Shown here: positions 37,520-38,019 of the stretch, piece by piece
Position numbering within the stretch: the first letter of the stretch is position 1
Layout: each line of letters begins with the position of its first letter
From: Escherichia phage ECO103 4-12-1
Length of the DNA stretch: 64,000 nucleotides
Strand: one strand, 5' to 3'
Sequence record: OR844650
The notes under the pieces: generated by a model
The model's input: the letters and a program-made list of their open reading frames with translations, nothing else
What the model was told of the DNA's origin: nothing
The model's database searches: none
Program-made: the position numbers and the translations under genes

Positions 37520-38019
37520 ACGGGGTTTGCTTGAGCATATTTCATCCCCCCGCAGGGGAAAGAACAAAAAAGTTTGACGCTGGTGGCCTTCACATAGTTC
37601 ATATCACGAATTCTCTTACGAGACGAAAGCGGGTTGCTCTGTTTCTCTCTATCGCGGTTCTTGTAGCAACGGTCGTCGGTCTTAAACATCCCGACACATA
37701 ATACAAATACCATATGACCAGTACTTGTATTTGATTTCACAAAATTTGGACGCAACTATATTGTATAATTCCGACCGCATATTTCTTATGAAATCTCCCT
37801 TAGATAATTGGTAAGGTGCGATCCTTATATGTCTATCGAGGAACTCTCTTTATCCTATTGGAGTTCTTTATACAGCCGCATTGCCGTGAGTGGTTCAAAC
37901 TATGCCATCATCTAACGGGTTTCATCTGCTGTTCGTACTGAAAGGACTACTCATCTACCCTCTACATTTTCGAGTGGATTAGGCTTTTAATCATTTCCTT
38001 ATGGGAACCTTTCAGGATT
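37520..38019. other. GC-rich ORF-poor intergenic island with stem-loops
   Basis: About 500 bp at roughly 45-48% GC against an AT-rich background; no convincing ORF; contains CGGGG ... CCCCG and CCCCCCGCAGGGG stems and a TGTATAAT box at 37762-37769. Confidence 0.4.

Follow-up and report, generated by a model that had tools for sequence, protein, structure and literature searches.

A large pseudoknotted RNA, probably from a stand-alone gene of a new family, in Rak2-like jumbo phages and bacterial chromosomal islands

The window considered here, a 64-kb stretch of phage DNA analysed at its full length, is about 98% identical over 16 kb to the Asteriusvirus jumbo phages 121Q, PBECO4 and vB_EcoM_E9.1, relatives with genomes of about 350 kb. 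The genes around the RNA locus all lie on the minus strand, and between two of them is a long gap that well-curated records (121Q, G17) leave without a gene and some automated records fill with tiny hypothetical ORFs. An original prediction had singled out 37520-38019, within this gap, as a GC-rich, ORF-poor and possibly structured segment. The GC enrichment is real, although 37520-38019 has 41.6% GC rather than the roughly 45-48% claimed, and only the first 200 nt of the flagged stretch reach 44.5%. By comparison, 8-kb bins of the window contain 31-34% GC, and the genes on either side 28-31%. The motifs to which attention had been drawn are indeed in place on the plus strand (CCCCCCGCAGGGG at 37546-37558 and TGTATAAT at 37762-37769), as is the presumed terminator of gene 38083-38970, a hairpin followed by a T-run that is annotated as a terminator in G17 and that a simple terminator scan missed because of a bulge in the stem. 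The segment had also been said to lack a tRNA, and ARAGORN found neither a tRNA nor a tmRNA gene in the window.

The flagged segment is part of a longer element. A family profile run with nhmmer has a single match in the window, from 38097 to 37484 on the minus strand (E = 2e-128), which takes the feature beyond 37520-38019 at both ends; neither sequence nor profile searches found a second copy within the 64 kb. The parts of this cassette are the following.

37480-38082: intergenic gap between the minus-strand ORFs 36859-37479 and 38083-38970 (ORF listing)
37484-38097, minus strand: whole conserved cassette, comprising promoter, structured RNA and 3' hairpin module (nhmmer family profile)
38057-38086, minus strand: predicted promoter of the RNA (consensus scan and conservation)
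38021-38052, minus strand: terminator-like hairpin GGUGACAACAUAAUAUGUUAGUCACC followed by U7 (read from the sequence; annotated terminator in G17)
37802-38015, minus strand: 5' domain of the RNA (pair counts on alignment A1)
37733-37800, minus strand: optional insertion module of about 68 nt (gaps in A1 at columns ~286-350)
37572-37731, minus strand: 3' domain of the RNA (covariation; covariance model R1, 100.7 bits)
37540-37564, minus strand: universal GC hairpin UUCUUUCCCC-UGC-GGGGGGAUGAA (near-invariance across copies)
37517-37522, minus strand: distal hexamer CGTCAA, a direct repeat of the proximal CGTCAA at 37579-37574

The promoter comprises a -35-like element, (C)TGAGACA (38086-38079), which overlaps the stop codon of gene 38083-38970, a spacer of 16-17 nt, and a TG-extended -10 element, TATAAT (38062-38057); the consensus scan reported it as GAGACA-16-TATAAT with the upstream TG, at 10 of 12 matches. 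The arrangement is kept in every copy, from phages and islands alike, with TGGGACA, TGGAACA, TGAGACA or TGAAAC followed after 16-17 nt by TGnTATAAT or TATACT, and judged by its sequence this is an extended -10 promoter of the sigma70 type. An intrinsic terminator hairpin follows the core in about two-thirds of the copies and is lacking from the window copy. These elements predict expression of the RNA from a host-type promoter and terminator. Downstream of many cassettes lies a separate sigma70 promoter (TTGACA or TTGACT, about 17 nt, then a -10 box), and the downstream genes thus have a promoter of their own.

Individual copies depart from this plan in ways that may affect their expression. 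The hairpin at 38021-38052 is specific to one paralogue and missing from the others; it terminates the upstream gene, yet it sits between the promoter of the RNA and its core, and the window copy may therefore be poorly expressed from its own promoter. Transcripts starting there would meet the terminator within about 30 nt. The module at 37733-37800 is likewise present in some paralogues only. It contains the reverse complement of TGTATAAT, so that the box singled out as a plus-strand signal turns out to be part of an optional RNA hairpin; as a plus-strand promoter TGTATAAT was discarded, being unconserved (TTGTACA in many other copies) and inside an optional insert. A sub-motif of about 30 nt, AAATTTGTACAATATAG(A/T)T(C/G)CGTCCAAATTTTG, was also seen as an optional insert at two sites of the RNA that differ between paralogues, the second being the P16 loop of other copies (A1 columns ~475-510); it behaves like a modular hairpin and often includes a GATC site.

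Two observations concern the neighbouring genes. The start of ORF 36859-37479 has probably been called too far upstream: its first 25 or so codons overlap conserved non-coding sequence, its homologue is annotated 78 nt shorter in G17, and a promoter-like TTAGACA box lies at 37485-37479, in the sequence downstream of the RNA cassette. Further along, an ORF of 261 aa with CapR-homology and DUF723 domains (35539-36324, minus strand) lies between cytidylyltransferase and Dam methylase genes, where neither 121Q nor G17 is annotated with it. Probably a gene of the homing-endonuclease type has been inserted here, and the insertion may be the reason why about 5% of the 16-kb query fails to align to the relatives.

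The fold of the RNA was derived by comparison. The window copy and 25 divergent copies were aligned with MAFFT (alignment A1, 26 copies, mean column identity 61%), RNAalifold gave 66 pairs on this alignment, 45 of them with compensatory changes, and pseudoknots were added through a covariation scan. The curated model has 88 pairs in 17 helices, five of which are pseudoknotted or long-range. On A1, 95.7% of the cells in these helices are paired, as against 78.5% for shuffled and 35-42% for slid alignments; 64 of the 88 pairs have changed on both sides, and none of 500 shuffles reached the model on any of five measures. Across the helices G-U combinations far outnumber A-C ones (147 versus 21), and it follows that the folded strand is the minus strand of the window and not the plus strand, on which the TGTATAAT box had been noted. 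Compensatory helices beyond the controls and a strand-specific G-U signal are the properties of a generic structured non-coding RNA. The helices lie as follows.

38015-38008 with 37945-37938, minus strand: P1 (A1 pair counts)
37977-37972 with 37962-37958, minus strand: P2 (A1 pair counts)
37950-37948 with 37937-37935, minus strand: PKa, closing around the 3' strand of P1
37932-37928 with 37876-37872, minus strand: P4 (A1 pair counts)
37918-37911 with 37889-37884, minus strand: P5 (A1 pair counts)
37866-37861 with 37846-37841, minus strand: P6 (A1 pair counts)
37881-37879 with 37831-37829, minus strand: PKb, AAUG with CAU
37855-37853 with 37804-37802, minus strand: PKc, P6 loop with the bases that precede the invariant UAAGGGAG
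37731-37720 with 37711-37700, minus strand: P10, hairpin of the 3' domain
37718-37712 with 37604-37598, minus strand: PKd, 7 bp from the P10 loop, 3' domain
37670-37666 with 37637-37633, minus strand: PKe, GUUGC with GCAAC, crossing P14 and P15
37656-37652 with 37609-37605, minus strand: P14, 3' domain
37649-37645 with 37629-37625, minus strand: P15, 3' domain
Ending in CGUCAA at 37579-37574, minus strand: P12, P16 and P17, 3' domain

The helices of the 5' domain, to which the invariant UAAGGGAG belongs, are 91.6-100% paired on A1 and each has compensatory changes. Much of the model holds up in larger sets. Among 55 non-redundant full-length copies, chromosomal island copies included, PKa, P4, PKb, PKe and P15 are all 100% paired, and PKc is weaker (85% overall and 61% in the island copies); on an alignment of the 3' domain from 49 copies (A2), pairing reaches 100% in PKe and P15 and 98.4% in P14, and several pair types are represented. 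PKd has a sequence specific to the paralogue (UCAUAU/AUAUGA, AUUGUAU/AUACAAU, AUUGCAU/AUGCAAU or AUCGAAU/AUUCGAU), while its pairs are formed in 99.5% of cases over the 55 copies and four of the seven alternate between at least two pair types at comparable frequency. Its geometry, taken from the alignment, is that of a classical H-type pseudoknot (L1 = 1 nt, L2 = 0); pairing in trans, as in a homo-oligomeric cage of the GOLLD or ROOL type, could occur in principle, though the modelled geometry is that of an ordinary intramolecular pseudoknot. MAFFT misaligned P17 and the variable hairpins P1a, P9 and P12, which makes their pair counts unreliable. The energy of single-sequence folding is unexceptional against shuffles (z = -1.08 and -0.52 on the two strands), and the evidence for RNA structure is comparative rather than thermodynamic.

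Coding capacity is not conserved. No ORF is shared in strand, frame or position across the 26 copies, the longest stop-free stretches (40-105 codons) differ in strand and frame from copy to copy, and only 54 of 499 alignment gaps are divisible by three. The original view of a long gap with no convincing ORF is borne out, and the outcome that it had named as refuting a structured element, recognition of a degraded protein-coding gene, is rejected by the same comparison of ORFs and indels. Its central suggestion of a structured RNA gains support from the 17 covarying helices, the conserved promoter, the lack of a conserved ORF and deep conservation in related phages; the comparative folding that it had recommended is the analysis described above, in which the helices covary beyond controls. 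The RNA is not small, as had been supposed, but large, at about 450-520 nt; the structured core spans roughly 430-520 nt across copies and about 450 nt in the window.

Another recommended check, a search of Rfam, returned no catalogued family. At gathering thresholds, the 4227 models of Rfam 15, which cover RNase P, tmRNA, group I and II introns, 6S, GOLLD, ROOL, HEARO and RNA I, gave no match over the whole window. Permissive scans (E-value limits 10 and 1) of 37300-38200 and the loci of four other copies, three from phages and one from an island, gave nothing near threshold (E from 0.04 up), and in the window the sub-threshold matches coincide with the terminator hairpin, with the first 57 nt or so of the core region at its 5' end, or with the flanking ORF. 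The RNA is undescribed in the literature found on jumbo-phage non-coding and structured RNA, Asteriusvirus, CBB, phAPEC6 and Sharanji, and likewise in a 2026 jumbo-phage review and an IMG/VR survey of structured RNAs. With no matching Rfam model and no description found in the searchable literature, there is little doubt that the locus holds a real structured RNA gene of a new family.

BLAST with the gap alone matched an element of about 600 nt, at 66-100% identity, in 69 phage records, most of which have four or five matching places each. All are Rak2-like (68 jumbo genomes of 310-386 kb and one 23-kb Klebsiella-phage record), with hosts in Escherichia, Klebsiella, Salmonella, Erwinia, Serratia, Yersinia, Cronobacter, Pectobacterium and Xanthomonas, and within the phage collection the RNA is confined to such records. 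Identity between genera is 66-75% over 400-530 nt, inside an otherwise fast-evolving intergenic gap. This conservation, which the original prediction had named as one of the points on which a functional reading would fall or stand, together with the absence of a coding relic, disposes of the idea that the segment is a remnant of acquired DNA. More than 80 further copies were found in metagenomes, and those inspected belong to jumbo-phage relatives or islands.

In 121Q, an nhmmer search of the whole genome located copies at 90.2, 192.7, 247.4 and 326.6 kb and nowhere else; all four share the plus strand of 121Q, the equivalent of the window minus strand. They are 59-71% identical to one another, and each fills one of the largest unannotated gaps of the genome; the genes on either side of the copy at 326.6 kb (copy B) both run antisense to it. 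A further unannotated gap, about 2 kb long (121Q 135194-137161), is without a copy. The phages fHe-Yen9-04 (Yersinia), BF (Serratia), GAP32 (Cronobacter) and CBB (Pectobacterium) have four mapped copies each, at about 30, 175, 260 and 335 kb, and from such matching positions across genera it is concluded that the paralogues are old, dispersed and syntenic. The syntenic copy of RaK2 was found by the 3'-domain covariance model R1 (E = 9e-14).

To find bacterial copies, one genome per species was scanned with a pattern and then searched with the family profile. Full-length copies (E ~1e-85 to 1e-97) are carried by Serratia fonticola, on a complete chromosome, Serratia sp., Enterobacter chinensis, Silvania and strain RIT714, and by MAGs of Buttiauxella and an Enterobacteriaceae member; an eighth was found on a contig of 2.8 kb whose assignment to a Clostridium MAG is probably a binning error. 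Among 5,426 complete E. coli genomes, two have the RNA, in an island adjoining ffs, and in 72,556 plasmids (PLSDB) it was not found. Each island locus has a single copy. Usually an integrase (large serine or tyrosine) comes first and the RNA second; then follow a cI-like S24 repressor in convergent orientation and the genes for a cro-like HTH protein, a 286-aa protein, an LprI-like protein and a DNA invertase. The S. fonticola and E. coli islands have other layouts, and in one island, known from a metagenome contig, KwaA and KwaB of the Kiwa defence system come next. The chromosomal surroundings vary with the host, which indicates that the RNA travels with the island.

Promoter, core, GC hairpin and repeat are all kept in the island copies. 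These copies fall into more than one group: that of E. coli is most similar, at 76-78%, to a particular paralogue carried by phages of Serratia and Yersinia, and most of the others are more alike among themselves than to any 121Q paralogue. A tblastn comparison found no protein consistently common to the islands and 121Q, the one match being to a DUF4326 protein in a single island, and the RNA is the only element that phage and islands consistently share. This speaks for an RNA that acts in cis, by itself or together with host factors. The 286-aa island protein gave no match of value in Pfam, PHROG, NCBIfam, PADLOC or PDB. The island family may be a type of satellite or defence island, connected with jumbo phages, that has so far gone undescribed.

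Conservation does not stop at the 3' end of the core. The GC hairpin, UUCAUUCCCC-UGC-GGGGGGAUGAA (37564-37540), is followed by CAAAUCYCGUCAR and is nearly invariant in all phage and island copies; its outer stem varies with pairing kept. It corresponds to the CCCCCCGCAGGGG stem of the original prediction, and of the G/C stems described there, which do exist, the 3' GC hairpin of the cassette is the sole counterpart. The hexamer CGUCAR that closes P17 (37579-37574) recurs 30-89 nt downstream, after the GC hairpin (37522-37517), and this direct repeat (CGTCAR in DNA) thus flanks the segment with the terminator and the GC hairpin. In 71 of 74 distinct cassettes the proximal hexamer matches the distal one exactly, where 38.5 would be expected and the maximum in 1000 shuffles was 50, and two rare variants of the hexamer change at both places. 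Such coupling suggests that one guide strand or one factor reads both sites, which could serve in processing, in a conformational switch or in priming. The GC hairpin may be part of the RNA or a DNA signal; in either case, conservation beyond the terminator is left unexplained by a simple terminated non-coding RNA.

Taken as a whole, the locus is explained with good confidence as a stand-alone minus-strand gene for a large (~450-520 nt), pseudoknotted non-coding RNA, for which action in trans is inferred. In the proposed scheme, the sigma70 RNA polymerase of the host would transcribe the RNA early in infection, and the RNA would fold on its own into a compact tertiary structure that would then act in trans, either through ribozyme activity or by providing the RNA core of a particle or RNP, with the invariant unpaired nucleotides of the junctions as its putative active or binding surface. 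Dense tertiary pairing with invariant junction nucleotides is the look of ribozymes and RNP cores, and few bacterial and phage non-coding RNAs combine a length of more than about 400 nt with dense tertiary structure; those that do have historically proved to be ribozymes, RNP cores or RNA cages. It is the combination of this pairing, the many invariant junction nucleotides and the lack of a partner protein alongside that favours a self-folding, trans-acting RNA. The trans-acting mechanism itself, as opposed to a role in cis at each locus, is a tentative preference that may well prove wrong: for copies that are dispersed, syntenic, divergent and all retained, a cis role fits at least as well as a set of redundant trans-acting genes.

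The nearest likenesses are to GOLLD and ROOL, large structured RNAs of phages and prophages with no known function. Like them, the present RNA is very large and complex in fold, stands alone without an adjacent partner protein and is borne by phages and mobile elements. Unlike them, it occurs in Enterobacterales and in lytic jumbo phages rather than in Firmicutes prophages, has four to five divergent paralogues per genome, does not lie beside tRNA genes and gives no match to their Rfam models. Non-coding RNAs have also been described in PA5oct, a Pseudomonas jumbo phage, where RNA-seq defined four ORF-less transcripts of 236-619 nt (ncRNA001-004), two of them very abundant (PMC7318152). PA5oct is a distant relative of the Rak2-like phages, and its ncRNA004 (246116-246734) is a lone plus-strand unit between minus-strand genes, a layout like that of 121Q copy B. 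The nhmmer profile detected no homology in PA5oct 7000-24000, which contains ncRNA001 and ncRNA002, and covariance model R1 of the 3' domain found nothing in the regions of ncRNA001, ncRNA002 and ncRNA004. Given this lack of homology, the PA5oct transcripts cannot serve as evidence of expression for the present family.

Foremost among the alternatives is that the cassette is a replication origin, at which a structured pre-primer RNA would form an R-loop near its 3' end and prime the leading strand, as modelled on the origin R-loops of T4 and on RNA II of ColE1. The GC hairpin and flanking repeat, exposed on the displaced strand, would then be a loading or priming signal, and the islands would be satellites that carry one origin and are replicated by the replisome of the jumbo phage. 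Such a scheme accommodates the dispersal of four copies over about 350 kb in 121Q (at 90, 193, 247 and 327 kb) and of four each at about 30, 175, 260 and 335 kb in fHe-Yen9-04, BF, GAP32 and CBB, the placement of all 121Q copies on one strand even where flanking genes oppose, and the retention of every copy despite only 59-71% identity. The RNA resembles ColE1 RNA II and T4 R-loop transcripts in its length of about 0.5 kb and its sigma70-type promoter, T4 too has multiple origins, and the phage has a T4-like replisome and RNase H genes. Conserved, non-helical features of DNA or RNA lie just past the 3' end of the RNA, and family searches recognised neither a replicase nor a primase among the island ORFs put to them, leaving the RNA as the sole consistently shared element.

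Against an origin stands the fold: five conserved pseudoknots and many invariant junction nucleotides far exceed the known needs of a primer, strong folding disfavours R-loop formation, and in most copies an intrinsic terminator parts the RNA from the downstream hairpin. The pseudoknot-rich tertiary fold followed by a terminator also sets the RNA apart from the ColE1 and T4 transcripts, to which it has no homology; it is absent from the plasmids searched (PLSDB), and Rfam revealed no RNA I-like antisense family on either strand. GC skew follows transcription and gives no origin signal, and both the origin activity and the replication or mobilisation of the islands would be predictions of the analogy. 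An origin is therefore considered unlikely, if a serious candidate, and the alternative offered in the original prediction, an origin or packaging element, keeps some probability as the role of the RNA cassette.

A ribozyme-like or self-processing RNA machine, over which jumbo phages and anti-phage or satellite islands would contend, is decidedly unlikely in the following specific form. Here the GACGA strand of P17 would be an internal guide for two identical CGUCA|R sites that flank the segment with the terminator and the GC hairpin, and the island copies would use their RNA to hijack a phage function that depends on it (for example, origin firing) or to poison that function as a decoy.

Highly unlikely is a leader RNA that acts in cis, like the put RNA of HK022, to make the polymerase that transcribes it resistant to terminators, so that it would read through the terminator of the cassette and the long gene arrays downstream. 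The order of promoter, structured RNA, terminator and long co-directional arrays at copies A, C and D, the position of dispersed copies at the head of gene blocks, and a terminator directly after the RNA that would act as a checkpoint are all as in put and other cis antiterminator systems, in which a promoter-proximal structured RNA is followed by a terminator and long operons. However, the RNA exceeds known put-type elements about sixfold in size, some copies lack co-oriented genes downstream (121Q copy B is antisense to both of its neighbours, and the island copies converge on the cI gene), and many cassettes are followed by a sigma70 promoter that belongs to the downstream genes. That the gap is a degraded, unusual or mis-called protein gene, or a functionless foreign patch richer in GC, is a reading of negligible probability: small hypothetical proteins are called within the gap in several GenBank records, and the window gap has ORFs of 82 and 56 aa, but no ORF is conserved over the 26 copies, the indels are mostly not multiples of three, helix substitutions are compensatory, and conservation across genera is above neutral expectation.

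With four to five divergent copies kept per phage, the jumbo phages clearly invest in an RNA in whose place the inspected records show spurious small ORFs or nothing at all. Its home in islands beside an integrase and a cI-like repressor, in one case together with Kiwa, links it to conflict between phage and host or between phage and satellite. The RNA thus offers a testable handle on how replication of a 350-kb T4-like genome is started and on the unannotated gaps of these genomes.
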